A DNA stretch of 63,993 nt, the filler included, from Hausera hauseri (taxonomy: Eukaryota): NCBI GenBank assembly GCA_046269625.1. It is 11 parts of 11 records of this genome, joined end to end, with 100 filler letters (N's around TTAATTAATTAA, not from the genome) between each part and the next. Parts side by side here need not be neighbours in the genome. Positions count along the whole stretch, not along the records: positions 1 to 5,692 come from JBJURY010205745.1; 10 more parts are not named here. The stretch is one strand, 5' to 3'. Positions 1 to 45,395 of the stretch are shown one piece after another. Positions within the stretch are counted from its first letter, which is position 1. Every line of letters starts with the position of its first letter. The position numbers were made by a program, and so were the translations under genes. The notes under the pieces were generated by a model that had not been told where the DNA came from, searched no databases, and worked only from the letters and a program-made list of their open reading frames with translations.

Positions 1-1311
1 TCGTGGCTACTGCTGCGATCTGCGTTTGATTAGTCCATAAAGGTGTTTCATCTATCCGGGTTGCCATTCGTCGGGTATATTTTATCAGCTCGTTAAAATT
101 GCTGGCTGTATGGAATTTAACTCATTCTCTTAAAGGCGGTAAAAATCCAAGTACAAATTGTTTTATGATCATGGCACCAAATGCGTGTCAACTCAAGCCA
201 AAATATCTATTCATTGACGTTTTAAATTTATTAATGTATGCCAATACCTCTTCATTTGGTTTCTGTTTACAGTTTTGGAATTTCAAATATAAGTTTTCTT
301 GTATGTTAACCTGCTGATTTTGTAGAATCCTTTCTCCGTGTTGTGTCCAAGTTTCATCCATTTGTCTAGGTAAGCGAGTTATTTCCATTTTTAGGTCGTT
401 ATTCACATGCACTGGTAGAAGCAACATTATCTTTTCCTCGTCCCATTGCATGGCTGTTGCTAATGAATCGTATTCGTCTAGTCTAGTCATCCTTTCCTCT
501 GTCCTTACTTGTTCGAGTCGTTCATTTAATTGATTTATACCTTGAGCTAGAGTATCTATTTTACTTATAGTGTGATTGCTTTCTACTTATATTTGCTCTT
601 GCTCGCATATTATAATTGCTACTTTATTTTGTATCCAATTAAACTTTTGATTCGCTTGTTTCTCGTTATTATCAATCTCTACTCTATTTCTATGTAGTGC
701 TGCTATATTGTCAATAGTCTGTTGCAGTGAATTATACATTTGTCTGGAATGGGCATTTACATTTTGTACTAGTTGGTCATTTCTGTCTTCCCATTCATTT
801 AAACTTATGTTACTATCGTTCACTATCTGTTCTGTTTGTGTAGTTCTTTCTTCGACTCTATCTAATCCTATGCCATTATTCATAACATTTGTCTCTATTG
901 TGTGACCTCCTCTTTGTTTAGATATATCTTGTATCTCTCCGTCTGATTCTGTCTTATTCTTAGGTCATCTACATTCACTTGATGTACTACTTAACGTGTT
1001 CGAAATTCTAATTCCTGATTAACTATTCTCTGTTCCAATTGTCGTGAATAAGGTGCATTACGAAATTGCCCTCGAGGTGACCTTCGTCGCCGATTAACTC
1101 CTTGTACCCACTGGTATTGTACTGGAGCTGGTGACATTTGCAGTGGATCAATGTCAAGTAATAATTCTGGAGTTGATGTTGTACTTAAAGCGTCTGAACA
1201 GTTAGCAGAACTAATATTTTCCTCGTTTGAATCAACTTTATTAATTGCTGTTAATTGATTTTGTGCCAGTTGTCCTCGGGATAGGGTATTGTACTGATGT
1301 CCCTGCGCCAT
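1..1311 (-). pseudogene. gag: Decayed Ty3/Gypsy-type gag (N-terminal YNTxSR-like motif, coiled coil, capsid-like domain); runs off contig end
   Basis: ORF pieces 991-1311 (MAQGHQYNTLSRG), 587-883 (coiled coil), 188-490 (RLDEYDSLATAMQWDEEK...FQNCKQKPNEEVLAYINKFK), then FVLGFLPPLREEL after a frameshift; capsid Q-x-x-x-E-x-V-x-x-Y pattern; stops and frameshifts between pieces. Confidence 0.7.
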
Positions 1312-1346
1312 TGTTGCTAAAAGAAATTAAATTGCTACCCATTGTA

Positions 1347-1863
1347 TTACATGTATATAGTACAGGTTTCTTCTATGGGTAATTCACACACAATACATTT
1401 CAATAACGTAGAATATTTACGAACACAGTTTTTACAATGAATAATGTGTCCATATGGTAAAGAAATCGTATTTGATTGATTTTTTCTACAGATTAAACCG
1501 GTCCAAATTGTACAGCTAATATCTGTACATCTTTTTTCCACTTCTTTCTCCTTTTTTTAATGTTAGGGTCAGGTGCTAAACTCTCTGATAGTATTCATCA
1601 TCCATCAATTGCATTTGATATATTTTGTTAATCATTGATTGTAATACCTCATATTGGGCCTTTTCATAAAGTTTTATATCAACCATTGTCAGGTATTTGA
1701 AATACACTAGTTCCATTACCCTGGTAAGTAGAAGGTTGTTGTACAATCTGTACCATCCGTAGGCTATTCTAGGAGGTTGTTTCTTAACGGCTGTTAACTG
1801 AATTGTCCATTTAACAAGATGGATCGGAGTCATGCTACTGGCATCTAAGGATCCTACATACAA
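1347..1863 (-). pseudogene. Decayed protein with C-terminal IAP/MDM2-type RING finger
   Basis: 1347-1541 reads LICRKNQSNTISLPYGHIIHCKNC...KCIVCELPIEETCTIYM*; upstream 1576-1863 ORF is probably the same gene, broken by a stop and frameshift. Confidence 0.6.
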
Positions 1864-2009
1864 TATTATTCAATTTATTACTTTATATTGTTATCTAAAA
1901 GAATCATATATATACGCAGACAGACATTTATTTATTTAATTCAAAATGCATGATTTTATAAATTAGCATTCGAATAAATAGAGATGTTCCCATTGTTCAT
2001 TTCTGGTAA

Positions 2010-2660
2010 TTAGAAACGTGTTATTCTTCTTTCTATATGGCTTCTACAGACTGGGCAGTTCACGGTTTGATTTGAGAATTTATCACACGTTTTCAAATGT
2101 TCACATGGTAAAAAATGACTTGTGCTAAATTCACATAGAAAACCACATATTTCAAATCGCGCAAATATAGATAATTAAGAATATTTTGTTCAGGTTGCTC
2201 TGTTTTTCTAAGGAAATAAAATTTAAATTCAGAAGTAATTCGAACGCATTTGGTGACCAATCTGGTTGAGTTTCTTTTCGATATTTTATATATCATAGTA
2301 TATTTTCACGCTTTGTAGGATGTCGGGATATTAATGACATGGCTATTTGGCTGTCTTGATAACTTTCATAAAGATTTCCAACATTGAATTATATTCGGCT
2401 TTGTCTTCTAATACAACTTTTTGGAACTTCATATATTGAATATTCACATTCAGTAGTGTGTAATATTTTCGGACATTGTTGGTCAATCTTTTCTAACAGA
2501 TCCGTCTCAATTAAGCATATGGTACATTTTACACATAGGGCTTCTCCTTTTATTATTAGTATTAATCCTTGCTCTGACAAGTGTTCAATATTTTTATTTC
2601 CTTTGAAAATTAACTTTCTCTTTTGTACAGTATTTAAAATTAAGTATAATTTTTTTCCAC
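2010..2660 (-). pseudogene. IAP-like gene: BIR-like domain, linker, C-terminal RING
   Basis: Manual translation NTVQKRKLIFKGNKNIEHLSEQGLILIIKGEALCVKCTIC...CPKILHTTECEY fits BIR (R..TF..., LA.AG, VxCxxC...H...C); distal LKYVVFYVNLAQVIF/PCEHLKTCDKFSNQTVNCPVCRSHIERRITRF* is an IAP-type RING with a 1-nt frameshift. Confidence 0.6.
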
Positions 2661-3260
2661 TGTATTGTCTTTTGAGTAAACTATCCGTATTGTTATTGTC
2701 GCATCACAATCAGCATCCTTGTCTATATCAGGTTAGTTTAGTAAAGGTATCTGTTAGTAATACGTTGTTGACGTTAATATTTAATAAATAAAAACATGTA
2801 GGATATAATTTTTTATGCATCCTTTTTGGTTGGTCCCTCGTGGACTCATTGAAATTCTCCTTGGCAATAAAGGCATTTTATATGTTCTGTTGTAGTTCGG
2901 AATAATCCCGATATCGCGTATAACCGTGCTAATTCTCCTGGGACGGATGAATTTGGATTAGTTGAAAAGGATATTTTCCTTGTTTGTGCATCTGAATAAT
3001 TCGTTTATTACTTTCAACTTAGTATAATTTATTATTATTTTTTTAATTGATGTTGGCCCTTTTTGTCTATTTCGATAATACAACAAATATCCTATTGTAT
3101 TAGGTTGGGTTAATCCTTGATATTCATATTTTTTGGCGTCCGAATTTTTGTATTTTTGACCGTCAACATTTCAAGCGTAACTAAAATATGTATAGGTGAA
3201 TTCATTTTTAAACATGTCATTATCGTATTATATCAACATGACAACTAAACTAAATTTTAT

Positions 3261-3545
3261 TTACAATCTTTCTATAGTATAATAGTCAAGTCCTTTCTTA
3301 AAGATTCGGTTGATTCCCCGACATAGTGGACATACGGTGGATATTATAAACCACTCTTTTACACAATTCAGACAAAATTCATGACGAAAATTCGTTAATG
3401 TCACAGAGTCAACCGAATAGGAACTCAGACAGATAGCACATGCAGGTCCTATGGGTGCAAAAGTTCCCTGTGGGTTATAGGTGAAATAAATATTCACTAC
3501 TGTGTGGTGACAATGAATTTGAAATCCATAGTTTAGTGCGTACAT
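3261..3545 (-). CDS. Small RING-finger protein (one ligand Cys changed to Phe)
   Basis: CAICLSSYSVDSVTLTNFRHEFCLNCVKEWFIISTVCPLCR. Confidence 0.8.
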   Translation of the reverse strand: MYALNYGFQIHCHHTVVNIYFTYNPQGTFAPIGPACAICLSSYSVDSVTLTNFRHEFCLNCVKEWFIISTVCPLCRGINRIFKKGLDYYTIERL

Positions 3546-3698
3546 TCTGCATATCAGACAGAGAAGACCTTAATGAACGAATGTCAATAATTCATAAGTA
3601 AAACCACTTCATCAATTTTATTAGTAATTAATTCTCATAATAGTTTAAATTTACAGTTTAGCAATCATATATGGCCGGGAATTTCTCCACTCGTCGGG

Positions 3699-4088
3699 TC
3701 AATTATCTTCATCTTCATGAATTATGAGGCTTATTGACGCTCGTCCATCAATGTTCATATATATTATTAATCCTCCCAAAGAGTAGAAGTCTGCATATTC
3801 ATAACAGGAAGGGCATAATGGATATGCCTTTAGATGTTCAGTTATACAGGTCGGATAGAAGGCGTGTTGACAAGAAAGTACTGCTAGTGTATCAGCCACT
3901 AAATTAAGGTATATTGAACAAAATGCACATGTCCGTCTGCAACATTGACAAGTGGTCTACTCAGCTAATCAGGTATATATACAAATCCGACAATACTGAT
4001 GATCGCAAGGTAACACAGTCTTTTCCAATGTCAAATCTTCCAAGCAAATTGGGCAGGTTTCTACAAAATAACAACATTCAGTTTCCAT
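3699..4088 (-). pseudogene. Tandem double-RING protein with two in-frame stops
   Basis: From ATG 4088: METECCYFVETCPICLEDLTLEKTVLPCDHQYCRICIYT*LAE*TTCQCCRRTCAFCSIYLNLVADTLAVLSCQHAFYPTCITEHLKAYPLCPSC; one frame through to stop at 3699. Confidence 0.8.
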
Positions 4089-4136
4089 ATTAATGCATTA
4101 AATTTCTATTATTTATTAAATATCACACGCTATTAC

Positions 4137-4310
4137 TCATAGTTCATTTAGTTTGTACAACAATACATTTAGTTCTTCGATATCTGGAGGGGTTAATGCA
4201 CAGATTGGATATAATAGCTGATAACTTTCATCCAATGTAGCGATGTCCAATTCAATAGTTTCTTCACAGCAACTGCATTTAAATTGATGATCCTCCTCTC
4301 CTAGCTCCAT
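4137..4310 (-). CDS. Small putative zinc-ribbon ORF
   Basis: MELGEEDHQFKCSCCEETIELDIATLDESYQLLYPICALTPPDIEELNVLLYKLNEL; CxxC plus degenerate xPxC; same strand as the RING cassette. Confidence 0.35.
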   Translation of the reverse strand: MELGEEDHQFKCSCCEETIELDIATLDESYQLLYPICALTPPDIEELNVLLYKLNEL

Positions 4311-4470
4311 GATGAATTTTCACAGAATGCAAGAATTTTGTTCCCCTATTGTGGTGATTAAATATTTTCGACATATAACGCAAGCTGAAAATCAGTATTA
4401 TCTGACATATTTATATACAATCCGTCATCCAATTTAAGTGTCTTTAATTTCATTATTTCTTAATTTTAAT

Positions 4471-4533
4471 AAATATCTACTATCTTTTCAACTTAAATAT
4501 CTATCATCCTTTCGACTTAAATATCTATTATCT
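4471..4533. repeat. Short imperfect 24-bp tandem repeat (about 2.5 copies)
   Basis: AAATATCTACTATCTTTTCAACTT / AAATATCTATCATCCTTTCGACTT / AAATATCTATTATC. Confidence 0.7.
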
Positions 4534-4778
4534 ATCATCTTTTGGACTTCCTCTAATTCACGTCACACTTAGTTTCTTCCTCTTAATACCAAAAGTTTTA
4601 TCTTATAAATTCTAGTCAGTGGAAAATTATTCGTTTTAAACACTTGATAATAGCACATTAACAACATAATGCATTCTTGACACCGTCTAATTGGTCATTT
4701 TCTCCTTTCCATAACTTCATGCAAATGCGGCTGATTCTCAGATTATATATCAACAAAACGGTGCAGGTATATATTTAA

Positions 4779-5129
4779 TCAGTTATAATACATTCGTGGT
4801 AATTCAATGAGTCTTCCATTTACACCTAATATCAAGATTCTGTTAGATCCTTCTTCTTCACCGGGAAGTACCACGATGGTAGCACCCCAACACTGATAAC
4901 CCGTCGTTTTCCGGCGGCAAGATGGGCAAGTTTTGTTCCTACGCAGCCAATTATCCGCACATTGAATACACATAATATGTGTGCAGCGAAATAGAGCATA
5001 TTTCATACCCAAATGATTATAGCAAATTTTACATCTAGTACCTATAAGAATATAAATTACGGATTTGTCATTATCATTATATGCATCCTTAAAGATTATC
5101 GTGAAGAAATTCTTCCTTACCCGGGGCAC
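4779..5129 (-). CDS. C3HC4 RING-finger protein (intact motif; start codon uncertain)
   Basis: CKICYNHLGMKYALFRCTHIMCIQCADNWLRRNKTCPSCR. Confidence 0.85.
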   Translation of the reverse strand: MPRVRKNFFTIIFKDAYNDNDKSVIYILIGTRCKICYNHLGMKYALFRCTHIMCIQCADNWLRRNKTCPSCRRKTTGYQCWGATIVVLPGEEEGSNRILILGVNGRLIELPRMYYN

Positions 5130-5792
5130 CAGTTTTTATGTTAGGCTACAGTGTATGGAGGATTTTTAGAGATTTTATTCCTAATTTCGACATAACCAAC
5201 ATAAAAACGGAAATACGTATGAAGGGTGATGAATGTTCAATGGTGGTTTGACAACTACGTTGTCTGCAACTGTCATTTGTAAATTTCACCTGGGTAAGTT
5301 GTAAAATGGAATAGATTATTAAAATTGATTTCACCTATTAGTGGATCTGTTTTATCTATATTGGATTTCAAATTCAAATCTTTTATACTATATTGTTATT
5401 TATTCCAAGATATTTAAGTATAAGGTTGCCATTTTTATAGCTTTGTGGGGCCTTAATCAATAATCATGATTTTAATATTAAAGGTATATTAAGAATATCT
5501 TAACTGGTATATTAGGAATATCTTATCGTATCTACCTAAATAATGTAACAAAAAAATAAAGGTATCTGATTTCGCATTGATATTTTGTGTCAAGTATGGA
5601 ATTATTAGTCTTATTAATTTGAACTGTTGTAACAGGTTTTTGCTAAATTGTATTGGCTAAAATTTAGTATACAGATGAGCCGTGATTCACTTNNNNNNNN
5701 NNNNNNNNNNNNNNNNNNNNNNNNNNNNNNNNNNNNTTAATTAATTAANNNNNNNNNNNNNNNNNNNNNNNNNNNNNNNNNNNNNNNNNNNN

Positions 5793-6645
5793 GGTATTTG
5801 GTCGCGAGACTTAGTTAAACAATTGATTTTGGCTAGACCTGAAAATTTTGAAGGAACGTTACGATTAGCTCAAGATTTAGAAATGGCGCTAGATAGATAC
5901 ACCAGACAACGATAGAAATGACAGGAATAATGATCGAAATGACCGGAATGACAGAAACCGCAATGGTAATCGTGGAAGAGACGACAGACGATTTTCGGGT
6001 AACAGAAATTATTGGAATAGGAATAATAATCGCGGTTACAGAAATGGCAGAGGTAGTAATTATACTAATTCGAACAGGTCAGACTCTAATTCGGATAGGA
6101 ATAGAGAAAATTATAAAGGCTCAAACTACTCGAATCAAAACGGCGATAACCGAAATAACGATAATAGACGAACTGCCGACAATGTGCAAAGTTTGTCAAA
6201 TCAGTATAGTAAGGATATAAATAGATTGAAGTCGCCAGTGAACGAAGACGGTCGACAGAGAGTCGGCAGAAATGGGAATTTGGTTTGTTGTACTTGTGGC
6301 AAAGAAGGACACATCTCAAGGTCATGTCCAAATCCGAGTAGCGTTTCATTTACCGAACGAAATAAGACTAGTATGATTAGAACTAATGAGAACTTAGAAG
6401 CAAAGTATGGCGTTCGTGGAGATACAAACACTATTATCGATATACAGGATTTGAGAAAATTTTTGGATGTTCAGCCAGATACTACGAACTTACAAATTTT
6501 GATGGCCAGAAGAGAATGCGGAGATGAGCTAAGATTACTGGAAGTATATCACTGCTTAGTAGAACCAGAAACTGAATACGAACACGTGATAGAACCCAAA
6601 CGTAGTGAAATGACACGAAAAAAATTGTGTTCCAACAAGCAATAA
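5793..6645 (+). pseudogene. gag: Retrotransposon gag C-terminus: capsid end, R/N-rich tract, CCHC zinc knuckle
   Basis: IWSRDLVKQLILARPENFEGTLRLAQDLE, frameshift near 5910, RNDRNNDRND... tract, then CCTCGKEGHISRSC (CX2CX4HX4C). Confidence 0.8.
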
Positions 6646-9194
6646 ACCATCCGATAAACCAGACTCATCGACGGCAGTCGACTTGGACGCAGAGACTGAG
6701 TTTACAGCTAAAAAAGTAGATAGGTTTACTGAAGATGATGTAGCAGAAAAAGAATTTATGGAACCGTTAATACTTAAAATTTCGAAAAATAGAGGCCGTA
6801 GCCCTTCTCTAAAAACGAAATGAAGAAGTCGTTCACGCTCCAAAATAACTAGAGAGAAAATTAAAAAAACAGAAAACCCGAATGTCGTTGTAGGAGGCAA
6901 CACGGACCATAGTTTGAATGTGCCGGAGGTTGGTTTATTCACACCTGTCGGAGCAGCGGAGTCTATAGAGTCGATTAATGAAATTAACGAGATTTGCCCA
7001 ATTCCCATTAGTGAGGAAGATACAACGAGTACCGACGATTTTGATGCAAAGAAATGGAAAGTCCGACATTTATGGAAAAATGCCAATGAATTGAGGAAAA
7101 TGAGAAATAAAGGATATGGTCAGAAATATTACAGGGTGTCCTAGAAAAGCTTAAACAATTTAGCGAACAAGTAGACATATCCGGAAAAGAGCAACAGTTC
7201 GCTGAAAGGTTATATAGAAGTTTGAAACTGCGTAGCGAAAGGAAGTCTATAGAAGCAATCGACTTAGAACAACCCGAAGAGGTATCAGCCAAAACGTTGT
7301 CAAAATGGAAGCAGGAATTGGAATTGTGGATTAAAAATGGGTTTGAATTTTCGGAAGGATAGAGTAAAAATGAAGAGAGTGTCGATGTAAAAATTACTAA
7401 GGCTCAAACGCTATTATCGATTTTGGAAGAAAACCCAAAATTGAAGAGAGTAGTCCGTAATTTAGAACGTATGATGGACGAAATTCGGTATGCAATAATT
7501 AAACGACTTAAGGGAAAACCGGTTAACCACCGCAGTAACATCGACTTAGAAATATTGGGTATAGACCTAGTAAATATTCCTCCCTTAATGGAGATGATTA
7601 AACTTACGTTCGCCGTATCTAGACGATATACGAATTTAGAAAGTCGTATTAAAATAGAAAATGAAATACGAGCACAAATTTTAAGTTTGAGAAATCGAAT
7701 TATGTTCCCAAACAACGAGGATACTCGATATACAATAAAGGCTTGTATCGTAGAATTGGACGAGTATAGGGACGAGTTTAGTTATATCGGTCGAGTTATG
7801 AATTTCCTAAAAAAACAGACGATGAGTTAGAAGATGCATATAGGATGCTAGATAAAGCCATAATGGCGAAACAAGTAATCGCAAATCAATTGTCGGAATG
7901 GTCCTAGTTAGTAACGCGACTAACCAAATCGGTAGAAGATCGTAAAACAAAATTTCCGCAAAGCGAGCCAACGGCGAAGAAGCAACTAGAGGAAAGTGCA
8001 CACGATTTAGCCACGATGCGAATAGAAATAGACATCCGTATTCAATTTGAAGCGCTACGACGACTAAAATTTATGGGAAAGGAACGAGACGCATCGAATA
8101 TGGAGGAAATCTACAAATTGATCGAAGAGACGAATTTTACAGAGAAACGGAATATGATTTGCGATGTAAATTCAAAGCTAAGGATTGCCCGGTTAGAAGG
8201 GATTCTATATTTAACCGGGAAACCAATCGACGAAATTTCTGTACCAGACATTGAAATCTTGGACATTTGTCCAGAATATCAAGATACGTTAACGGACGAA
8301 ATAAGATTCTTACACAAACCTCAAGAATGGATGGCCGGATCAGACCAGAATTTCCATACCAAGTTGATAGAAATCGGAAACGATCCACATTTTAGCTTTC
8401 AAGAACGCAAGTTTGTAAAGAAATTGTCGGATGCAATGGACTATGATTCAAAGGTTATAAATGAGCTGTATGAGTTAGCCTATTTATTAGTGGAAATGGC
8501 AGAAATCAGCGATGAGCAGATGAGGCAATTGATGCCAAAGATACAAAAATTAGAAAAAACATGTATCAAAACAAAACAAAGAGCGACAAGGTTAGAGAAA
8601 ATAACAAAAGAGCTTGAAGTCTATCAAAACAAATATGCTTTTACCGAATTATAGATTAAGAATAAACAAGCATTTGTACAAAGATGGCAAAAAGATGTAA
8701 TCATCGAACTAACGGATTATCACCAAAAGCTACTCATCGACTCTAACGAATTCGGTGAATTACTAAAAATGATCCAATATGCCTGTGGAAATGGAGTAGG
8801 TTTTTGGACTACGCAGATGAAAGAAATACAACCTAGGTTAAAAGAAATTCGGGAAAATGTGCAAAGAACAAGTGTAGCCTTAGTAGGCGCTGAACTCCCA
8901 GATGTCAGTAATGAGCCAGAATGGGATGCATACTTATACGCAATGCTGACCGAAAAGCCCATGACTCCAGTACAATGGAATGAGATAGACACGTGCCCGC
9001 AGAACAGAAGATTTGATGTAAAAATGCTACTGGATTCAGCGCTGACTGAAAAAGATTTGATTGAATTAATTAAAGTAAATATTACTGAAAATAAATTAAG
9101 ACAACTTATTCCAACTTTAACTAAATTGTCCAGTGAGAACACGATTTATAGCACGGTGCCGAAACTTTTGATAAGAAATTTGCTAAAATTTTAA
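6640..9194 (+). pseudogene. Chain of co-oriented helical/charged hypothetical ORFs (6914-7144, 7423-7830, 8016-8654, 8769-9194), probably one or a few broken long ORFs
   Basis: Purine-rich coding-like + strand; frames resume across isolated stops; no protease, RT or integrase motifs recognised. Confidence 0.5.
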
Positions 9195-9214
9195 GGAATA
9201 AACCTGAGGTAGCG

Positions 9215-9784
9215 ATGAGAGTGATGGTATCATCCGAGTGGATGGACGAAAAAGAATGTGAGTTAACTACATATTCTTATGTAAGGGACGTGCGAGAATG
9301 GTTATTAAATAATGGTGGAACAAATGAGTTAAACTACAGATTTTACTTTATAGATAAAATACTCGACGACCTAAAACAACTAATAGATGTCGGGATTATT
9401 CCCAACAAAACAAACCAAATAGTAGCAATAATAGCTAACGATCAGACAAAAGAAGAAGCCACACGTAAGGCTAAAGTGAAACAATGGATAGGACAAATTA
9501 TGGGAGTTTGCGACGCTGAACTGTATTTTGAGTATTTACAAACGGACGAGAATAAGGAACAATACGACATAAATTTAGTACCACTAAGTGTAACAACCAC
9601 TAAGGGTCCAAGACCGAAACGCCCAGTAGGCAGGCCTAGAAAAGCGCGAGAAGAACTGGATTACAGTGGAGAGTTAATTAGAGAATTAAGACAGATGTCG
9701 ATTCCAACTCTTAGCACAGATAATGAGGAATTAAGGAAGTTAATAAAAAATTTAATACGAATTGTAAATTATTCCAGTCTTTGA
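9215..9784 (+). CDS. Ubiquitin-like domain protein with AT-hook
   Basis: N-terminus MRVMVSS...YVRDVREWL...YRFYFIDKILDDLKQLIDVGI fits the Ubl pattern (TVxDLK...RLxFxGKxLxD...LxDYGI); RPVGRPRK AT-hook. Confidence 0.65.
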   Translation: MRVMVSSEWMDEKECELTTYSYVRDVREWLLNNGGTNELNYRFYFIDKILDDLKQLIDVGIIPNKTNQIVAIIANDQTKEEATRKAKVKQWIGQIMGVCDAELYFEYLQTDENKEQYDINLVPLSVTTTKGPRPKRPVGRPRKAREELDYSGELIRELRQMSIPTLSTDNEELRKLIKNLIRIVNYSSL

Positions 9785-10458: not shown

Positions 10459-10933
10459 NNNNNNNNNNNNNNNNNNNNNNNNNNNNNNNNNNNNNNNNNN
10501 NNTTAATTAATTAANNNNNNNNNNNNNNNNNNNNNNNNNNNNNNNNNNNNNNNNNNNNCTAAAACAAGTAAAGAAGCCCATTTGGAAAATGGTTTTAGTT
10601 ATATAACAAAATTAAAACAAATTATTACAGCGGGTTATTTCAATTTATTTCTGTGAAATCCACGTTGGATGCATTGGAAAAATTGAACAATAGCGTCATA
10701 AAAACCAAACATGTGAATAAATTTTATTAGTTTTTGAGGTGTGTTTGTCCATAGCATCAAACATGGAATTCCCGACTGTGATGCTCGTTTGTAAGTTTCC
10801 TGATATGTTGACGAGAATAACCAGATGATCACGTCTGACAAATCGTATCGGATAATACATTTTAAAACATTACAATGTGTCAATAAGAAATAAAAATATC
10901 AAATGACTATAAATTATTATTAACTCTACACAG

Positions 10934-12226
10934 GTAGGTGCAGTGGCCAGTTTGCCATACGTTAAAAATGCTATTCGAGTAGCTCATTATGTGCTAAAGT
11001 ACACACGACATACTCTACTAGTTGGACAAGCAGCAGCCCAATTCGCAAAGGAAATGGGCTTTCAATGGGAAAATTTGTCAACTAATCGATCAGATAATCT
11101 TTGGCAACAGTGGCGCGCGGCTAAATGTCAACCAAATTTCCGGCGGAACGTCATTCCGGATCCTAATCAACACTGCGGACCTTATTCACCAATTCAATTG
11201 GATGCAGTTCAAATGGGTACGATTGTTGATATTATTTGGAGAGATTTATGGTGAAGGTATCATACTTTATTTTTTAATTCCTTTGAATGCAAATATATTT
11301 TAAGTTAATGAGTTTAGAGCAATTGTAAAATCTCATCCATTTTTGTTTCTACTGTTTTATAATTTGAATTCAATTTTATTGATTTAAAGTATATCCAATA
11401 ATTCATTTGAATTTTTGTTCAACTGTAATTCTGTTTGAACTATGAAAAATTTTTTTTTTGAAAACACCAGCTGCTATGCTCAATTGTATGGATATTTGGA
11501 AATACATTCCAACACCCGATATCTTCATAAAAACTGCATATTGTATAAGCCCAACCATCTTAGTACGCCTGAGTTTTCCAAAACAATAGTTTCTAGCTTA
11601 TGTTTTCTTCTCTCAACAAACTTGAAGTAAGCAAATTACGAACACCAACTGTAAATTTCAGTCAAAGATGACAACTTCCGAGTACCAGGAACAGTTGATG
11701 AGAAGCATCACGATACGATTGGAATGATTGCAATGAACTCTAGAGGTAACATTGCTGTTGGTACGTCCACAAACGGTGCCATTCATCGTGTGCCAGGTCG
11801 AGTGGGAGATACGGCCATTCCAGGTGCCGGTGGCTATGCCGATTCATCAGTAATGCATAATATATGTAACTGACTGACAATGTACAGGTGGGTGGTGCAG
11901 CAGGCACAGGTGATGGTGATGTACTAATGAGGTTTCTGCTATCGTACAGTGCTGTTGATCTCATGCGGAAAGGTCTCAGTCCTACACGGGCATGTGAAGA
12001 GAGTCTTCGTAAAGTAAAGCAGGTAACCCTATGAAGACAAATGATTTAATTGGCCATAATTACTCATTTTAAGATCGGGCATTGGTCGGGTGGGCTAGTT
12101 GCTGTTAATCGAGAGGGTCACTTTGGCGGTGCTTGTGTCGGGTTTAATGACTACAAGATTAGTGTACGCAGTGCTGATACTGGGTTGTCTACAGTTACGT
12201 ACCCGATAAAATGTTTTGAAAAATGA
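10934..12226 (+). CDS. AGA: Aspartylglucosaminidase, 3' exons 10934-11216, 11662-11849, 11888-12022, 12074-12226
   Basis: VGAVASL...HTLLVG...CQPNF...CGPY; HDTIGM autocleavage site; GTSTNG..H.VPGRVGD; GTGDGD; GT-AG introns of 445, 38 and 51 nt keep frame. Confidence 0.93.
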
Positions 12227-12779
12227 CCCCTTGATATTATCTTTCAAATACAATTCTAGAACAATGTCCTTTGGAATTTCTTTTCTTGTATAGCTTTCAT
12301 TATGTCTTTTGTATTTTTGAGAGCCAATTAAGTAAAAATTGGTTATTTATATTCAGTGGCGGCGGTAACAAATATGAAACAATTGTAAATTACGAGTTAG
12401 TAGGGAGAAAATGGGAAGTCTCTCACCCCCACCCCCGGAGGTAATCGATAAATCAATTTTGCACATGGCCAATGAATAGTGCACATGGTGCACTATCCAT
12501 GGGTAGTGTGCTAGGCAACCGTTTGCACATTTCACAAATCGATCGTTGCGCAGTGCACATTAGTGTACATCGATTGATGCACAGTGCATGTGCTCTGCAC
12601 ATATGCAAATGTACAAGATCAATAATATCGGATTTCAGATATTTCCAATATTGATGATTGGCACCCGGCACTGGGTGCAATCGAGTGCAAAATAGATTCT
12701 CTATATGAATGTGTAATTAGAATTTAAATCGATCGAGTGGATTTCGAATAATATCGATCCATAATATCGATTAGCTAGA

Positions 12780-12990
12780 TATTACCCATATTACTTGTAT
12801 TTTACACACAGAGACAAAAACACACATGCACACACGACATATTTTACCTACACATTTCCTATGTTCTGCATTTTACCCACACAGACAAACACACGTACAC
12901 ACGCGCGACTTATTTTAGCTATGCATTTCCCAGTTACTCCCAATTTACATGCACACACACAGGCAGACCAACACACACAGATACACACAC
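12780..12990. repeat. AC-rich low-complexity tandem repeats abutting the broken end of pPolB
   Basis: Repeated ATTTTAC(A/C)CACAC(A)GACAAA..CACAC units and (CA)n tracts. Confidence 0.65.
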
Positions 12991-15336
12991 GACATAAATG
13001 TCCTCAGTATGGATCTGATAGATGAAACTATCAGTATCCATATACATCAGCTGTATGGACTTGAATGTTGGGACCATGATGTCAAAGTGGAATTTGTACA
13101 TCAAGGTCTTTGACAGGTCCAGTATTGCCATACCCACATATATGGGCTTGTTGAACTCAAGCGATGTTTTCAGCATATTGATGCTGACCAAGTTCTCAGC
13201 ATATATGGTGCTGCTGTGGAAGTTGGGCTTGGCAATGAGCTTCTTTGCCGGCTTCCACTCAGAGACCAGTTCGATGTTGATTCTGTTGCGGATATTCTCC
13301 ATGGTCTTGCCAAAATCGTTCTTGGCATTTATCTGCAGCTTCGTATTGAGATCTATGTAGGGCTGCAGCCACAGGGAATTAGTAATGCGGAGTCCATGTC
13401 TAACAGCTTTCAGGAGATTTATATAATGGAATACATACTTCTCCCTTCTATCCAGATGGCAAAGCAGCTTTCTATGCTTTCCATGGGACGGAGGCTTGCT
13501 CTCAGGGAGGAAAGGCAGCTGTTGATGCCTTGTGCGGATAGAAGCCGGATATTCCATATCCACCTCCAGTGTGTATCCCGTATCTCTAGTGGGGTCCAGG
13601 TCCAATATAGGGATGTTTTCAGGATTCTCGACCCATTTGAAATTATCATATGGCAATGGGGCGCTCATTGCCCATCCATACAAGTTGTTGACATCCAGGT
13701 ATGATATATATGAAGATACCTTTGCTGAATTGTATTCAGCCACATACTTGTTGTTGGCCTCGCTATCCCGGTAAATTGTCTGGTATATTCCGCCTCTAAT
13801 GCCTCTCTCAATTATAAGGATCATGTCGTAATTCTTAATGATCTGCAGTCTAATACCAGTATAGCGCAGCATCGCTGCCCAACTCATTCCTGGAGTTGTA
13901 AAGAAATGAGCCGGATCCAAAGCATGGCTCTTCATTGTAACATCCCTGAAACTCCCAAAGACGTCTATCAGCGGCAGCACATCGGTTTGGAGATGTATGT
14001 CATTATATTCCCCTATTGTCCTGCATTGGAATGCCTGCCAGACTTTCTGGGCATGCTGGTAGTCCTTATTACTATTATCACAGTCCGACAGCTGGCTATA
14101 AAAGCCCTCTTTGTCCAGCAATCAGGTATCATCCAGTGTTTTTCATGAGGTTGTTTAGTCATAAGGAAACACGGCTTTCCATTTAACCAGGTCAAAGTTT
14201 GTGGGAAAGAATTGCTTCGTCTCCTTGTGTTCTTCTGAAGGGAGGTTCTTCACTAAACTATCCAGTAAAGGCGACATGAAACGAAGGCTGTCTATGAAGC
14301 AAAGTCGGATTTTACCATTATGCTTAGTGAAAGTGATATATTTCTCCTCACTGTTCGAGATTACATATATTACCACCAATGTTGTCTAATTCTCGGACTA
14401 TGAAATGCAAATCATGGCCGTTATGATTACGGAACACTATAGGTACATATGTGCATGTTTTGCAACGTAGATTGCAGTTGTTACGTGCTCCCCACGATAT
14501 ACATCTGTAAAATGGTAGTGATCCTTGGCTTTCCAATTTTCCTTGGTGAAAGACTTGTCACACAAATAACATGCTGTTGTCTTGCGCCATTCTTCTTCTT
14601 GTTCCCATGACACGCTCATATTATTCTTATGGTGTTGAAAATGTTTTCAAGCCTATGAGCCATGTCTTCAAGTCGTTTTATGAAATGTGCTGCTGCGCCT
14701 GGACCCCTGAATAGAAATATTTTACTGTCTAATCCTTTGGCATACATGGAATACGATGAGTGTTCCTGATATTGATATGCCATTGTGCTGCTATGTTGAG
14801 GACTAGGAGTGCAGTTGTGAATTGGTCGGCGAATAGCTTCAAAGTCGCAATAAATAACTATTGGGACCTTGATCTTCTTCTCGAACTCCTTGAATTCAAT
14901 ATAGTCCTCCTTGGGAAATTCTGGCCTTACACAGTAATTGTTATTGCAGTACATTTTGTGCTCTGCAAGCTTGTCCACTGCTGCATCACCACTGAAATGG
15001 GAAAATCATTGTTTACATATTTCTATTTGTCCATGATGATTCGTAATTTGGGATCTGACTAGACTCTCACAATTCTTGATCCAAACGTAATGATTCTTTT
15101 CTCCATCGTCTAGTAAGAGCAGATCCCTATGATCTTCCAATTTAGTATCATGTATCTGCAAGGGATACAATATATCTTCCTCATCCAATCCAAAGATGTT
15201 GATGGATATATTGTTGATTCTGCTGAACTTCTTAATTTCATCTATGGATGGAAGGAATATGATACATTGGAAGTCATAGTTGTGCTTCAGATCATTATAT
15301 AGCCAAACTCGATCTGCTGCATGTTTTTGATCCGGT
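12990..15336 (-). mobile_element. pPolB: Polinton/Maverick protein-primed DNA polymerase B pseudogene
   Basis: HYVWIKN, VIYCDFEA (ExoI), CYLC...DHYHFT (endonuclease VII-like insert), FIDSLRF, YLDVNNLYGWAMS (motif A), YMDTDS (motif C); several frameshifts. Confidence 0.92.
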
Positions 15337-25620: not shown

Positions 25621-26200
25621 GTATGACTTCATATTTTTGCTGGGGAGGTCTTGAGTTTTCTATGAACAGGAATATCAATGTATGAGCAGGTCAAGTAAGT
25701 GGGGTGATAGTAGAAGTTAGCGCACGCATTCCATTGCATCTGGGTAGATCGCCTGTTATGCGCATGTGTGCACTTGAATGTGTTTATATCTGTATTGTTC
25801 AGTTGTTCTGCGTTTTAGTTTTGTTTGTTTCCTTTTTGCTTTATGAACTAATGAGATGAAACAGCATATGCATATCTTGATACTCGCAGTTAGTATTGCT
25901 CAATTTTCATCGAGGCAATCGGTGATTGAGCCACATTTTTTTTTGTTTGACTCAATTGAACGGAACCATTTGTGAAGCAATTCCTAACGTATGCTTTTTG
26001 AGAGCTGTTGTGATTTGCTCTACATTGTAGATGATGACCGTTGTTTCTCCCTAACCGCGACACCATTCCATTCATTCTGCACATTTCTAAAGAAATCCAT
26101 TTTGCAGCAATTTAAGTGTGCCTCAGTAAACTTTCCTTTTGTACTAACTAAGAGAATTTATATTGTATCTACACAAAACGAAAACATCATTCCAAGGTCA

Positions 26201-26869
26201 ATGCCAGCCAACGTTCCGACGCCTACAGACGTCGCTCTTGTGCCCATTTCCCAAAGTTCTCCTCATGAGACCGTTACTTCACAAGCTCTTGACAATGCAC
26301 TAACAATATCACGGAACTTCGTTGGAGTCAAGGATGCATTCAACAAAAAAGTACAACCATTAGATAGACAGACCGAAATGCAGCGTAAAGCAGAGCAGCA
26401 GGCATACGTTGACACACTCCACCCATTGAATCCATTGCGCGGCTATTACAAAATTGCACCCAGAGGCCTTATGCCGCATGGAAGTGTGTTGGGCAGCATA
26501 TCCAATTTGACGAATTATGAACTAGGAGTTGCGACACTTGCCATGCCTCATGCATTTGCTGCCGCTGGGAGTATCTTTTCTCTTGTTGCCTTGGCTTTTG
26601 TCGCATTTTCTGATGTTTATCTGACTGTGTTATTGTTGCTTCTCCAGGAAGTGACTGGTTATCAGTCGTATGAGCAGATGGCTGAAGGCCTCATTGGTCG
26701 ATGGTTTAAGTATGTTGTCGGTGCCCTTACTACGTTGCTTTGTTGGGGAATATGTGTTGTTTATATTGTGGCCATCAGTGATATTCTACAACCTATACAC
26801 TCGTTGGGTGTTCTCCCAGACGTATTTCGACAGGTCTGGGGCCAACGACTCATGACAACTATCTTCTGG
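26201..26869 (+). CDS. Amino-acid/auxin permease (AAAP, Aa_trans) family transporter, trypanosomatid-like, truncated by contig end
   Basis: PHGSVLGSISNL...LGVATLAMPHAF...SYEQMA..LIG...CWGICVVYI...WGQRLMTTIFW; no introns. Confidence 0.85.
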
Positions 26870-28806: not shown

Positions 28807-31800
28807 TTAGCCACGTGTGAATTTCTGTCCCAGGATTTCAGGTAGGATGCAATGTGTAAAATACTGCTTAACTTTGGGAACTTCTGTTTCCCAGAGCTGA
28901 TCATCTGGCAGAATTCTTTCCACATAAATATCATTTTCACTCCATACTACAAAATCACAATATTGCACATCCACAATGTGAATCTGAGCCTGGACCTGAT
29001 AGTAATAAGGATGGTTTCTATCCAGTTGTACAGAATCTCCATCCTTAACGAGACAAAAGCCAGGCTGTCCGGCACACATCTTCAGACTGACTTCATGCTG
29101 TTTGCTCTGTGGACACTGAAAGATAAGACAATGAAAGACATGGATAATAAATAGCCTCCAAAAGATTGGATTTTTACGTTATATTTTTTTAAAGATTTTG
29201 TTTCCCTCATTTCACTATTCAACAATAAAACTAGAAAGTGATAGTTTGTTTATGTCTCTGTCAAACAGGTGTGTTCTACAGGTAAGTGTGCTTTCATCTT
29301 AAATATGTTTTAACCCTCTGGAGTCCAGAGTGAAATTGGACGTTTTTATAATATTTTTGCTTTTACCTTTATATTTCACTTTAAAATTTGTTTTTCCTGC
29401 CATGTTTGGTGTCTTTTTGTTCAGTACAACCTCCTATGTGTGAATTTGAAGATTTTTTTTAAATTGTGACCTGCTTTATCAACACAGCAAACTTTAAATG
29501 ATACAAAAAACACACAAAAATGCAAAATCCGAGTGAAAAATTTATAGTTTTTTTTACTGTGAAAACCACAAAAATTTATAACGAACCGTTTTTACAACAC
29601 AGAATGCAAATATGAACAGTAAACTTCATAAAAATATATTCAAATTGAACAAAAATCAAAACTATGTACACTATTTACATTAAAATGAAGCCTATTTTTT
29701 AGGCGTTTTTTAGGCACAACAATGAAGTGTCAGAATAAATCAGTTGTGCCACTCTTCAAAGCAGTTTCTGTCCAGAACAACACAGAAGGGCACATCACAG
29801 GCCTTGCACTTCCATGGTGTGTCTCTTCTCTTATTGTCCACCTGGTGACAGCGCCTACATTTCAGCCTCCCTTTTGTGGCTTTTTCGCCAGCACCAGTGG
29901 TTTTGCAGATGGGCACAGGAACATGCTCCATTTTCCTTTTCAGGGGGACACCTGTCTTGTCCACATCACAAAGTCCACACAACAGGTCCACCATGAAGTC
30001 TTTGTGAGTCAGGGGCTGCTCCTTCTTTGCCTTGCAGAGCTCCTTGTGCAGAATGTATGCATTTGTTGAAGAAATATCTAAAAAATGCACCAACATTGTC
30101 TTGTACATACGAGCTGTTTTTCTGTGGGTGGAGTAGTACTGAATCAGCTGGTCAGACAGGTGAACTCCACCCATGTGTTTGTTGTAGGGCATGACTGGTG
30201 TGGGGCAGGGCACATTTTTAGAGGTCCACTGACCATCTTGGTCCTTCACCTTTCTCCTCACTGTCTCACCTGAAAAGGCAGGATGGATGGTGGAGCACAC
30301 AGATACCTCCCGTGTGTCCTTCCACTTCACAAACAGGACCGGTTCCTCCCTGATCCATCTTATGGACCCTCTTTCACTTTTTTTAGTGAAGCCATTTCTT
30401 CTCCCTCTAGGGCAGCCTTTTCTGTTCTCCCTGTAGGTCCCACACGCTCCAAACTTCTTTACGGACAGGTCCGTAAACAACTGGGGGCTGGTGTAGAAAT
30501 TGTCCATGTAAAGATGGTATCCAGTCCCAAGGCAGGCTGGCTCGAGCAGGTCCAGGACAACTTTATGGGAGAATCCATGTTCAGACTGAGCATAATTCTT
30601 CCCAGTGTAAATGCCAAACCTGATTGTGTAGCCACTGCAGGATTCTGCAAACACAAAAATTTTTATCCCCCATTTTGTTGGCTTGTCCTTCATGTATTGT
30701 GTCATTCCTGTCTTTGCTCTGGTTGCCACCATTCGTTCATCCACTGCCAGCTCTCTCCTTGGATGGTAAAATGCCAGGCAGGCACTGAGAATGTCATCAT
30801 ACAGAGGACGGATTCTAAAAAGCTTGACATGGCCTGGGGTTCCTTTTTTTTATAATTTTCAATGTCCTGCTCAGGATCACTCAGGTGAATGTTCCAAAAG
30901 ATGGATCGGAATCTGTCACGTGTCAATACTTTGGTTGGGGTAGGGACAGACAAAACATGGTTCTGTTTCCAGTAATCTTGGATACTTGGGAGAGACACCA
31001 ATGACATGTAAATTAGAAGGCCAAAAAATTATACAAATCTTCAGTTTCTATGTCAGTCCATTTATATTTTTTTCCAGATCTCTTATTTTTTGCTGCATTT
31101 TTATTTGTGTTATTGCAGATGGTTTTCACAGTGTCAGTGGCAAAAAATAAAAAAAAGCTCTTTAGGAGTATGAGTAGACAGAGTGTCAAAATGGACTCCT
31201 GGTGTTCTTCGTGGCACGAATCTGCTTACCTCTGGGGCAGCATCAACATCCACCTCTGTCTTCCAGGGCTCAGAGCTGATGCCTGGCTCTGTTGATCCAG
31301 GGGATCTGGACCTGGTGCACGCACCGCGATGTGACGCGCCACCCCGCCCCACCCTCTGTGCGGACCTCCGAGGAGCGCTTGACGCGCTCGCTGGACCCGC
31401 AGCTCCTGCTCAGCTCACTAAGGGACTCCAGAGGGTTAAAAGGGGATGGAAAGAAGACCCTAAAAGACTTTAGATCTTGTAAAAGATCTTATCTTTCATA
31501 CTGTTACTCAAAGTCTGCAGTGCAGTGTTCAAAACCTCTTGATAAATCATTTTTACCTTGATTTCACACACCCCGGCTCCATGACAGTCACATGAAACAA
31601 CTCCATCTGGTGAGGCTCCCATGTAAGGCCACCTTGAGTTTAACCACAGCCCACTGTCCATGCAGGAAAACCCCTCATGGTCCACACGCTGGAGCTGCTC
31701 ATACTGTTTTCGGGCTGTTGCTTCAAATTTACAGTCATATCTGGAATAAGAATAAACTGTATTTAAAACTTGAATTTAATTTATTTCTGGTGCATAACAT

Positions 31801-35886: not shown

Positions 35887-36611
35887 CACGGAACCGCTAG
35901 GAGCTTCGCTTAAAAACCCAGCATTTCTCAAATTTAAACAATAGGTATATTTTGTGAGTTTACATACTGTCAGAAAATGTAAACATTAAAAAGTAGCTCG
36001 AATTTTAAAATACTTTCGAACTGAAAATCTGGTCCTCCTTGTTAGCGCCACCAAACTTCATTTAGAAATGTGCGGGTTTGAGTTTCTTTTGATGTCCTTA
36101 ATGCGCGCGAACATGGAGAAATCAAAGAGAGGGACTTTTGTGAAACATCGACTTTTCTTCGTTAATTCTGCATATTTTTTATGTATCAATGTGCACCCAT
36201 CTCTCCACAAATACAAAAACAAAACAAACAGTAAACAGGCAATTCAAAGAGAGTAATCATAAATTGTTCTTATTCAAAAGTAGGTTAAGTTTAGTTTATT
36301 TGCACAGCATACATGCTTTTTCAGCAAAAATATAATTGTTCTACATTCTATTGAAATGCCATTAATGATGCACATTTTATTTGTATAATGATTAGAAGTA
36401 ATTTAGTCTTGATTAATAAAAAATAGTAGCAACAATATTATAAAAACTTTGCAAAGCTGTTTATGTTATTAATTACAAACTTAAATAGATNNNNNNNNNN
36501 NNNNNNNNNNNNNNNNNNNNNNNNNNNNNNNNNNTTAATTAATTAANNNNNNNNNNNNNNNNNNNNNNNNNNNNNNNNNNNNNNNNNNNNATAGTTAAGA
36601 TCTGGGCCAAT

Positions 36612-37272
36612 ATTGCACTCACTCGAGGTCTGCTAGCCGATGGTCGAGTAAGGGTTTTCGGACATGCTCTTCCATCTGGTGGTGCTGGATTTCGTGTGCA
36701 GTGTTGTAGCAACACTATATTAGACACTAAATTAAGATTTAAGATAGGGTACTGTTGTTTCGTCAGTACCCTTTCTGAAACACTAAAAGAATACAATAAG
36801 AATACTACACTCACGCGAGGTCTGCTAGCCGATGGTCGAGTAAGGGTTTTCGGACATGCTCTTCCATCTGGTGGTGCTGGATTTCGCGTGCAGTGTAGTA
36901 GAAACATTATATCACTAATTGAAGTAATATCTAAGATAGGGTACTGTTGTTTCGTCAGTACCCTTTCTGAAACATTTCAAAAAAGACGAATAGAGGCTTT
37001 CGGAGTAAGTCTTAAGATAAACACAAAGATAAATTTTTTTGTTAAGGTAGGCCACAAAACAATTTGCACTAAAATCTCGACCCTTGAGCCACTTGTCCTG
37101 GTTATACGCCCTAATTATGCTAGTTACCTTGACCAGGACACTTGGCTCTCGTATATAGGAATAACTAGGACCTTGACTAATACTGCACTCACGCGAAATC
37201 TGCGAGACGATGGTCGAGTAAGGGTTTTCGGACCTGCTCTTTCATTTGGTGATGCTGGATTTCGCGTGCAGT
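36612..37272 (+). repeat. Three copies of a ~95-nt hairpin-forming unit (36612-36704, 36803-36900, 37182-37272) and two copies of a 27-nt hairpin (36746-36772, 36938-36964)
   Basis: Core GATGGTCGAGTAAGGGTTTTCGGAC identical in all three; small hairpin AGGGTACTG/CAGTACCCT; period 192 bp. Confidence 0.9.
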
Positions 37273-44700: not shown

Positions 44701-45395
44701 CCAGAGACTGCTTCAGATGTGCAGGTGTCGGTATGAATGATCGCCCCGACAAATATATTATGTCACTCGACTTCGTTACAATAAAGCCGAGAGTAATATA
44801 ATTTGTATAATTATAGTTTGTATAATTCGCCATCCACTATCCTTTTCCGTGTAGTTGGCGATTTTCTCCTCGAGCTTTTTGCCTACGTCGGCAATAAAAT
44901 AGTTGGAATACGGTTCGGCTCGATGTGACAGGTACCACTGTTTCCTGTCACCTTCAACGTTTTCAAATTCTGCAAGAGCATAATGTTGCACTTTGCTGTG
45001 GTATTGTTGGAATTTGGCCACCTCTATTTCCAACCGGTTACGCACATAAGCGGGTACATCCTTCAATTGCGTTGTTGCTGTTGTTTTCGCCGTCATGTCC
45101 ACCTTCATGTCCACGTACGATCTGTTCAGGTCGTACTTGATTGTAATGTTGGGAATATTGGCCTCCTGTTCTTCTTGTTGATGCTGTTTCTGCTGCTTCT
45201 GCTGCTGGGTACTGTTTCGTCAAGACTTGTTGAAGCCTGGCGTTTTCTACTGGTTGTTGTTGTTGACATGATGCTGTTGTCCCTATTTGTTTCTTCGACC
45301 GCTTAAACTGGTTTAAGTGGTCCTTGTGAGTGTTGTAAAATTGTTTATAGTTGATTTCATCAACTATAGAACAACAACCGGGACAAACATAGGTT
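41790..45395 (-). mobile_element. pPolB: Second Polinton/Maverick pPolB pseudogene, nearly full length
   Basis: VVNIKN...CFLYSILA, HYVAV, VYADIEA, DHDHFTGRFLGAACNSCNL, FLDSLQFL, YLKLDVYLLADVF, YIDINNLYGWAL, KLKNNSVYGK, SGDTDS, LSCNDDKR; many frameshifts. Confidence 0.93.

Follow-up and report, generated by a model that had tools for sequence, protein, structure and literature searches.

The DNA analyzed here (the window; 63,993 nt of the Hausera hauseri assembly GCA_046269625.1) consists of separate contigs chained by N spacers, and the contig studied occupies positions 1 to 5692. All of the features described below lie on its minus strand, where the order is the end of a putative long terminal repeat (LTR), a primer-binding site (PBS), RING unit A, open reading frame (ORF) B, double RING unit C, RING D, two BIR domains, RING E, RING F, and gag. 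An initial annotation had placed a virus-like, intronless cassette of six RING fingers and an IAP ahead of gag and had read it as cargo of a giant LTR element. That description was confirmed in part, and its interpretation was supported in part: the interval map was right for the six RINGs and for gag, but it misjudged the limits of the IAP-like region and the start placed at 5129, and it omitted the ORF at 4137 to 4310.

The six minus-strand RING motifs were borne out by Pfam matches and by a RING pattern compared with shuffled sequence. The strict pattern had two matches in the real region and none in 300 shuffles; the relaxed pattern had four, and 3 of 300 shuffles gave one match. Pfam matched zf-C3HC4_3 at 4779 to 5135 (35.5 bits), zf-C3HC4 in two stretches at 3699 to 4088 (45.2 bits), zf-RING_2 at 3261 to 3545 (33.4 bits), and zf-C3HC4_3 again at 2010 to 2174 (22.2 bits; E = 1.3e-4; under the 27-bit cut-off) and at 1347 to 1556 (34.2 bits). 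The RINGs are mutually 22 to 33% alike. Their PDB matches were generic, with the EHV-1 RING mixed among many cellular RINGs, and an alignment of RINGs E and F, itself poor, found no relatives when used as a protein query.

Unit A (4779 to 5042) has a RING-HC from 5033, a predicted splice acceptor at 5042, and a tail of ~45 residues. No in-frame ATG lies ahead of this RING, and the start formerly assigned at 5129 proved to be a GTG within the PBS. When unit A was compared with other copies, 14 of the 22 listed differences fell at third codon positions (P = 0.0035); judged by sequence, RING A is under purifying selection. Unit B (4137 to 4310) is an intact, Cys-rich ORF of 57 codons with no family assignment and no strong acceptor, and its match to DUF7560 (E = 0.006) was below the cut-off. 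Unit C (3699 to 4088) holds RINGs in tandem, one from 4055 and one from 3929, with a predicted acceptor at 4061 and two in-frame stops, and unit D (3261 to 3545) is an open frame with a RING from 3440, a predicted acceptor at 3449, and a tail of 17 residues. Unit E (2010 to 2208) is a frameshifted, IAP-type C-terminal RING with a strong predicted acceptor at 2208, 58 nt upstream. Unit F (1347 to 1721) joins a predicted helical N-terminal part to an IAP/MDM2-type RING from 1499 and carries one stop and one frameshift; its predicted acceptor is at 1721 and an ATG is at 1716, and the start annotated at 1863 is uncertain. The predicted fold of the F N terminus has three helices at low confidence (pLDDT 56).

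The region annotated as an IAP, a possible BIR-BIR-RING protein, begins upstream of the limit of 2660 that it had been given. BIR domain 1 (2785 to 2992), which had been missed, is broken by a frameshift and has a weak acceptor at 2992. With an X placed at the break, it scored 26 bits in Pfam BIR (cut-off, 22.9) and has the CX2CX16HX6C arrangement of a BIR, and every listed PDB match was an IAP-family chain. BIR domain 2 (2392 to 2703), inside the interval already annotated, is degenerate: its Pfam BIR match (E = 0.004) was below the cut-off and was not recovered in two other framings, and it is 32% identical to BIR domain 1 over 28 residues. A PDB sequence search with BIR domain 2 and the N-terminal half of BIR domain 1 gave nothing useful. 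Between 2390 and 2208 there are stops in all three frames, plus the strong predicted acceptor at 2208.

The 5' part of gag (1 to 1311; N-terminal region, coiled coil, and capsid) is cut by the window start. Its ATG at 1311, 35 nt past the stop ending at 1347 as annotated, agrees with the start of P0001, an intact relative of 1339 residues, and the spacer (1312 to 1346) contains a strong predicted acceptor at 1317, 5 nt ahead of the ATG. The earlier assignment to a Ty3/Gypsy-like gag was upheld by P0001 and by a fold match. In tblastn, gag and P0001 were 41%, 35%, and 63% identical over three segments, and the P0001 capsid scored 0.94 in Atlas (matches of the P0001 C terminus were all under 0.9 and were set aside). 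We take gag to contain a retrotransposon capsid domain, with Retrotrans_gag below the Pfam cut-off both in the window copy (E = 0.0055) and in P0001. Ty3_capsid, Retrotrans_gag, or PNMA domains occur in the three other matches (22 to 24% identity). A protein search with gag found none at near length and P0001 alone among longer proteins, and a PDB sequence search with gag and P0001 gave nothing useful.

At the other end of the contig lies the 3' end of a putative 5' LTR (5139 to 5692), which ends in CA at 5139 and has AATAAA at 5179. TGTTA at 5634 and at 5550 are candidates for its start, which may also lie past the contig end. Directly inside it, in the arrangement of Ty3/gypsy elements, is a tRNA-Met-complementary PBS (5115 to 5131) that matches 15 of the first 17 letters of a published Met PBS (PMC1084362, Table 2). 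This match is the sole one in the window; shuffles gave 0 of 100 at two mismatches and 10 of 100 at three. Contig pieces from two public sequencing runs (X1 and X2), aligned to positions 1 to 5692, produced a spike here, with summed depths of 1987 (X1) and 70 (X2) in the bin at 5089 to 5131 versus 16 and 0, respectively, in the bin below. The X2 pieces at the PBS, among those listed, are 31 to 32 nt long and lie at 5113 to 5144, and the shared 31-nt contigs at 5113 to 5144 include the LTR 3' end.

The aligned pieces, 5702 from X1 and 329 from X2, are mostly 80 to 95% alike, as befits a dispersed multicopy family (summed depth is not copy number). One piece (4986 to 5139; 21 differences) bridges the PBS and RING A, and two others (1201 to 1484, 53 differences; 1272 to 1563, 61 differences) bridge RING F, the spacer, and gag. 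Another spans 4011 to 4279 with 37 differences, and diverged contigs from each of the runs cover ORF B. Since the PBS lies upstream of the cassette and diverged contigs bridge both the PBS-RING and the RING-gag junctions, the cassette lies within the element, as the initial annotation had proposed, and the 35-nt spacer before the gag ATG leaves no room for an LTR between the two. Diverged copies thus link RING F to gag, rather than presenting gag without the cassette. The bin containing RING F equals the 5' part of gag in depth, but depth over units A to D (~30 to 160) is far under that of gag and RING F (1400 to 9400), which suggests that most copies lack the distal modules or carry changed ones; no single aligned piece covers the entire stretch. 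The cargo would then differ between copies, in an arms-race-like manner. Decay is roughly similar in gag (four in-frame stops and one frameshift in 1.3 kb) and in the cassette (six stops in the frames counted and several frameshifts, with no stop in units A, B, and D), much as had been noted. The contig, which ends inside gag, has neither pol nor a 3' LTR nor a target-site duplication. No tRNA gene was found in the window, and three Rfam matches were each far below the gathering score. Searches of metagenome_contigs found no relatives, nor did searches of viral_contigs with gag, P0001, unit D, unit A, the F N terminus, or a PBS 18-mer; L001 was a 10-residue chance match.

The description of the modules as intronless is doubtful and probably not supported, because predicted splice acceptors precede RINGs. 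A predicted donor, GTRAG, lies within the PBS (5116 to 5120); it is one of two such words on the contig strand and the sole one upstream of gag. From this donor to the gag acceptor there are 0 further GTRAG words versus 5.4 expected, as in 1 of 500 shuffles. Seven strong acceptors were predicted on the minus strand, and one lies no more than 10 nt from each of four of the seven modules, namely three RINGs and the gag ATG, against a background of 1.4% (binomial P = 1e-6, with test windows picked after the acceptor list had been inspected; P = 1e-6 to 7e-3 across nine threshold and window settings). In the ten other contigs of the window, used as a control, strong acceptors accompanied 4 of 252 CxxC pairs; for ATGs, the figure was 36 of 2205. 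The acceptors of A, the first RING of C, D, and gag, plus the weak acceptor of BIR domain 1, are all in phase 1; those at 2208 and 1721 are in phase 2 in the window copy. RINGs E and F have no strong acceptor within 30 nt. In the window copy, the leader offers no ATG in frame with phase 1 for any of five candidate donors, and C and D carry their own in-frame ATGs upstream of their acceptors. Enrichment of transcription signals was considered and rejected: in five spacers, the TATA-like tracts to which the initial annotation had drawn attention numbered 6, versus 3.9 in shuffles (P = 0.22), and poly(A) hexamers numbered 10, versus 6.3 (P = 0.09).

In our view, the contig is probably the 5' end of a Ty3/gypsy-type LTR retrotransposon, one decayed copy of a repeated element. 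Six RINGs and two BIRs stand between its tRNA-Met PBS and gag; alternative splicing that starts from a single donor within the PBS likely expresses them, and they likely act on the ubiquitin and apoptosis pathways of the host. A short LTR leader exon would be joined to one acceptor per transcript, so that every module would have its own mRNA, as would Gag, whose ATG otherwise lies behind 3.8 kb holding 103 ATGs. Because spliced RNA would lose the PBS, only unspliced, cassette-bearing RNA could be reverse transcribed, and the cargo would therefore be kept on the element. Going by their families, the BIRs would bind caspases or IAP antagonists so that the host cell survives, as reported for Burro1 B-IAP, and the RINGs would recruit E2 enzymes and ubiquitinate host defense factors, with specificity supplied by short tails or partners. 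A bolder proposal, to which we give slightly less than an even chance, is that this is a gypsy-type lineage apart from Burro that independently evolved a complex-retrovirus organization: exchangeable RING/BIR counter-defense modules would stand ahead of gag, each a phase-matched exon served by one PBS-embedded donor, Gag would be made from spliced RNA, and cargo could not be shed through reverse-transcribed spliced forms.

BIR and RING cargo is already known from planarian Burro elements, and the initial annotation's statement on giant planarian Gypsy elements with an anti-apoptotic gene was right in substance. Burro (GYPSM1) comprises giant planarian gypsy elements with BIR, RING, and other apoptosis or ubiquitin domains, and a Burro-like element of D. 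tigrina has an upstream accessory ORF (PMC6431247); Burro1 B-IAP is reported (PMC13465017) to protect stem cells against caspase-mediated death. The window element resembles Burro as a gypsy-type LTR element with BIR and RING cargo but splits its six RINGs and two BIRs among several small units, which stand ahead of gag and have predicted acceptors. Burro elements exceed 25 to 30 kb, with long LTRs, triclad hosts, and a reverse-transcriptase clade; the contig studied here is 5.7 kb long and comes from a mixed assembly. Burro ORF1 has 4873 to 5140 residues, two or three CCHC knuckles, and MATH, SUMO, BCL2, or env domains before the protease, whereas P0001 (the relative tested, since the window stops before the knuckle region) lacks a knuckle and has no Pfam match to MATH, SUMO, BCL2, or env at E up to 1, although P0001 may be truncated on its 6828-base contig. 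In bdelloid rotifers, gypsy-like LTR retrotransposons capture accessory genes, and ORF3 is typically expressed from spliced messages (PMC5408684, a paper in which RING has a whole-word count of 0). These elements differ in having one ORF3 (env, GDSL, or DEDDy) downstream of pol. The gypsy-type element Cer1 of C. elegans makes its accessory protein CERV from spliced mRNA (PMC10309623). It differs in having one export factor, Gag from unspliced RNA, and no ubiquitin ligase. Lentiviruses and foamy viruses join one 5' donor to many acceptors, and their accessory proteins turn the ubiquitin system on host defenses, a likeness to the element as proposed; the accessory genes of complex retroviruses, however, lie mostly downstream of pol and hijack host ligases without RINGs of their own, and Gag is made from unspliced RNA.

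The same element and splicing could instead yield decoys, nearly bare RINGs (~60 to 120 residues) that soak up charged E2s or pair with and block host RING ligases without target degradation. From acceptor to stop, units A, C, and D hold little beyond the RING, and Pfam found no substrate-binding domain in them, but the low similarity among the RINGs suits distinct targets or partners, and E and F have domains upstream of an IAP-type C-terminal RING; we regard decoys as rather unlikely. That the element is a diverged member of the Burro family seems to us unlikely. The shared domains and the upstream ORF of one Burro-like element favor membership, as does a knuckle and fusion-protein match in Burro's order on the window contig at 5793 to 10458, but that contig is separate from the cassette contig, and P0001 is far from a ~5000-residue Burro ORF1 in length and content.

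Another reading is that the modules are cargo but that each is a mini-gene of its own, transcribed from an internal promoter or released from a polycistronic RNA by spliced-leader trans-splicing; the donor in the PBS would then be coincidental. Trans-splicing occurs in flatworms and needs acceptors too, B, C, and D have ATGs of their own, and each of the five spacers has a poly(A) hexamer. However, TATA and poly(A) counts do not exceed those of shuffles, and in A, C, and D the acceptor comes immediately before the first cysteine, in phase 1 and with no ATG between, whereas the flatworm spliced leader ends in AUG and would need phase 0; mini-genes are, in our estimation, improbable. Large DNA viruses (baculo-, pox-, and herpesviruses) typically have IAP and RING arsenals, and the BIR-BIR-RING logic and small RING proteins here recall them, but the context is an LTR element without a viral core gene: none was found among the ORFs of 1 to 5692, and three cassette queries of viral_contigs, a weak test for DNA-virus relatives, returned one 10-residue chance match. 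Nor was the DNA-virus-style reading of separate intronless genes with TATA promoters supported, with TATA at chance level and the sequence pointing to splicing. A gypsy insertion next to a fragment of an endogenous DNA virus, or next to a host cluster of IAP/RING genes, with accidental adjacency, would fit those arsenals and the low depth over A to D, but the PBS upstream of the entire cassette, the 35 nt before gag, and the junctions common to diverged copies have already largely refuted it, and we consider it highly improbable.

Relative to the initial annotation, the second BIR and the predicted splicing design are new. Cargo of this kind suggests that retrotransposons, like large viruses, may keep their own multigene toolkit against host ubiquitin-based defense and apoptosis, and the proteins that it targets would be pointers to invertebrate anti-transposon factors that are as yet unknown. 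A PBS-embedded donor, if true, would be a simple route to the expression of many accessory genes while guarding against their loss. Under the splicing model, four junctions are predicted exactly, each running from the PBS donor to one acceptor (that of A, C, D, or gag).

The window consists of eleven contigs strung together with N spacers. The cassette of RING and BIR modules lies on the contig at 1-5692 (33% GC), so the neighboring contigs of the window supply no genomic context for it. On the minus strand, the order is primer-binding site (PBS), RING A, ORF B, double RING C, RING D, BIRs, RING E, RING F, and gag. As claimed in the initial annotation, six RINGs were found by Pfam, in five units; the pieces holding five of them passed the curated cutoff, and RING E fell below it (22.2 versus 27 bits). 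A strict RING pattern gave 2 matches in the real region versus 0 in 300 shuffles. Where alignable, the RINGs share only 22 to 33% pairwise identity and thus are not tandem copies of recent origin. In the PDB, matches were generic for RINGs A and D and IAP/MDM-like but weak for RING F (best E value, 0.012). The BIR within the initially annotated interval was weak (E value, 0.004) and absent in two other framings, but a further BIR upstream, with a frameshift read as X, scored 26 bits against a Pfam cutoff of 22.9, and the PDB matches listed for it were all IAP-family chains. An intact 57-codon ORF at 4137-4310 had been overlooked. The TATA-like tracts noted in the spacers did not hold up, as TATA words were no commoner than in shuffles (P = 0.22); poly(A) words in the cassette spacers were not above shuffles either (P = 0.09). 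Between units A and B, the spacer is of low depth and contains a 24-nt tandem repeat (2.7 copies, 4470-4533). The observation of a RING/BIR cassette is real.

The cassette is very probably internal cargo of a gypsy-type element. A PBS is present at 5131-5115 (minus strand), 7 nt downstream of a CA end; it agrees with a published tRNA-Met PBS (PMC1084362, Table 2) at 15 of the latter's first 17 letters, and the match is unique in 64 kb. Among 100 shuffles, none matched at two mismatches and 10 did at three. In two public sequencing runs, X1 (which may be the source sample) and X2, 5702 and 329 pieces, respectively, aligned to the whole contig, mostly at <95% identity. Contigs of 31 to 32 nt from the public runs sit over the PBS, at 5113-5144, and depth spikes there (bin 5089-5131: 1987 versus 16 in the bin below for X1, 70 versus 0 for X2). 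Diverged contigs bridge the PBS and RING A (4986-5139, 21 differences), C and B (4011-4279, 37 differences), and RING F and gag (1201-1484, 53 differences; 1272-1563, 61 differences); no piece among the 16 listed per search of X1 and X2 spans the whole stretch. The upstream PBS and the diverged contigs at both ends support the initial proposal that the cassette is internal to the element.

Summed depth over contig pieces, which is not copy number, was 1400 to 9400 over gag, 4052 over RING F, 250 to 680 over the BIR/RING E region, and about 30 to 160 over A to D; this drop means that the distal modules are missing or >20% diverged in most copies. Loose contig ends at 5034 and 5151 reveal further variation among copies at these points. 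Of the 22 differences listed among the best-supported rows for RING A, 14 are at third codon positions (P = 0.0035), an excess that indicates purifying selection.

The 3.8 kb upstream of gag contain 103 ATGs. Under a rule fixed before inspection (YAG preceded by 10 letters of which 8 or more are pyrimidines), seven acceptors were predicted on the minus strand, at 5042, 4061, 3449, 2938, 2208, 1721, and 1317. The first cysteines of RINGs A, C1, and D each have one of these 5 to 8 nt ahead, and the gag ATG has one at 5 nt, so that 4 of 7 modules have a near acceptor versus a background of 1.4% (P = 1e-6; 1e-6 to 7e-3 across nine settings, with windows picked post hoc). In the ten other contigs, acceptors accompanied 4 of 252 CxxC pairs and 36 of 2205 ATGs. 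Phase 1 is common to the predicted acceptors of A, C1, D, and gag and to a weak site ahead of BIR1; those at 2208 and 1721 are in phase 2, and that at 2938, inside BIR1, is probably due to chance. GTRAG occurs twice on the minus strand of the contig, at 5120 (inside the PBS) and 508 (in gag), and not at all between 5120 and 1317, where 5.4 are expected (1 of 500 shuffles).

These predicted signals make it likely that the cassette is designed for splicing: one leader exon would be joined, from the donor at 5120, to alternative acceptors. After splicing, an RNA would retain no more of the PBS than its first 11 letters, and priming would be impossible, so the cargo would stay on genomic RNA. Two features of the window copy speak against this model: its leader lacks an in-frame ATG, and C and D possess their own ATGs. 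Precedents for spliced accessory genes are the ORF3s of bdelloid rotifer LTR elements (PMC5408684) and CERV of Caenorhabditis elegans Cer1 (PMC10309623); passages of PMC8532177 and PMC2774666 contributed nothing about layout. No paper returned by full-text searches, which did not take in the primary Burro papers or Repbase, describes a multi-RING cassette located between a PBS and gag or a splice donor inside a PBS; this negative is accordingly weak.

As to function, BIRs as a family bind caspases or caspase regulators, and RINGs recruit E2s. On the basis of family knowledge, an anti-defense ligase/IAP role for the cassette is somewhat more likely than not. The RING/BIR region of Burro1 is reported, second-hand, to shield planarian stem cells from caspase-mediated death (PMC13465017). 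The RING products of units A, C, and D could instead act as decoys, an alternative that stays live because these units are nearly bare RINGs.

Searches of 5.8 billion and of 1.84 billion proteins gave a single close relative of the window's gag, the intact protein P0001. Its 1339 residues begin with six identical to the product of the window ATG at 1311, and identity is 41%, 35%, and 63% across three segments. Its capsid matches Retrotrans_gag (E value, 7.6e-4; structure-match search Atlas, 0.94), and it has no CCHC knuckle. P0001 may come from the same organism as the window and so establishes the gene model without informing on the range. A domain is duplicated in its C-terminal part (residues 930-1339), the two copies sharing 33% identity over 43 residues (pairwise E value, 7e-7); a likeness of this part to a degenerate DEDD exonuclease, seen by eye, was unconfirmed by Pfam and Atlas. 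Burro elements, giant gypsy elements of planarians, carry BIR, ankyrin, BCL2-like, MATH, and SUMO-like domains as cargo. Their ORF1 is 4873 to 5140 residues long and bears two or three knuckles, and an accessory ORF lies upstream of it in one species (PMC6431247, section 7). The cargo of the window element would work like that of Burro, but two Burro features are absent from P0001, its closest relative, and we therefore keep the element out of Burro. A separate contig (5793-10458, plus strand) carries a decayed giant gypsy-like polyprotein with a gag end, a CCHC knuckle (E value, 4.6e-4), and a long coiled-coil-like region followed by a Monjiviricetes fusion match (E value of 1.4e-5, below the cutoff), an arrangement that matches the published gag-knuckle-env order of Burro.

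The assembly is mixed, a sign of which is an intronless amino acid transporter (Aa_trans) at 25988-26869 (plus strand) that looks, by eye, like those of kinetoplastids. A host-type, aspartylglucosaminidase-like gene (by eye) at 10913-12230 (plus strand) has introns of only 38 and 51 nt; these and the Burro-like contig would fit a flatworm, and neither the gene nor that contig is linked to the contig at 1-5692. Minus-strand regions at 12934-14121 (no Pfam match) and 42098-45219 resemble by eye the protein-primed DNA polymerase B of Maverick/Polinton, and 29740-30849 (minus strand) encodes a piggyBac-type transposase (DDE_Tnp_1_7; E value, 1.8e-56). The plus-strand open frame at 36591-39863 (about 1090 codons) has internal repeats, gave no Pfam match, and may be a retroelement ORF1. 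At 45496-49651, several short co-oriented ORFs without Pfam matches lie upstream of what by eye is a retroviral-protease-like motif (about 48250-48800). The GC-rich contig at 49752-59949 is bacterial, with a TPR-like repeat protein, a TonB-dependent receptor, a two-component pair, and thioesterase and Glu-Q-tRNA synthetase-like ORFs (all by eye).
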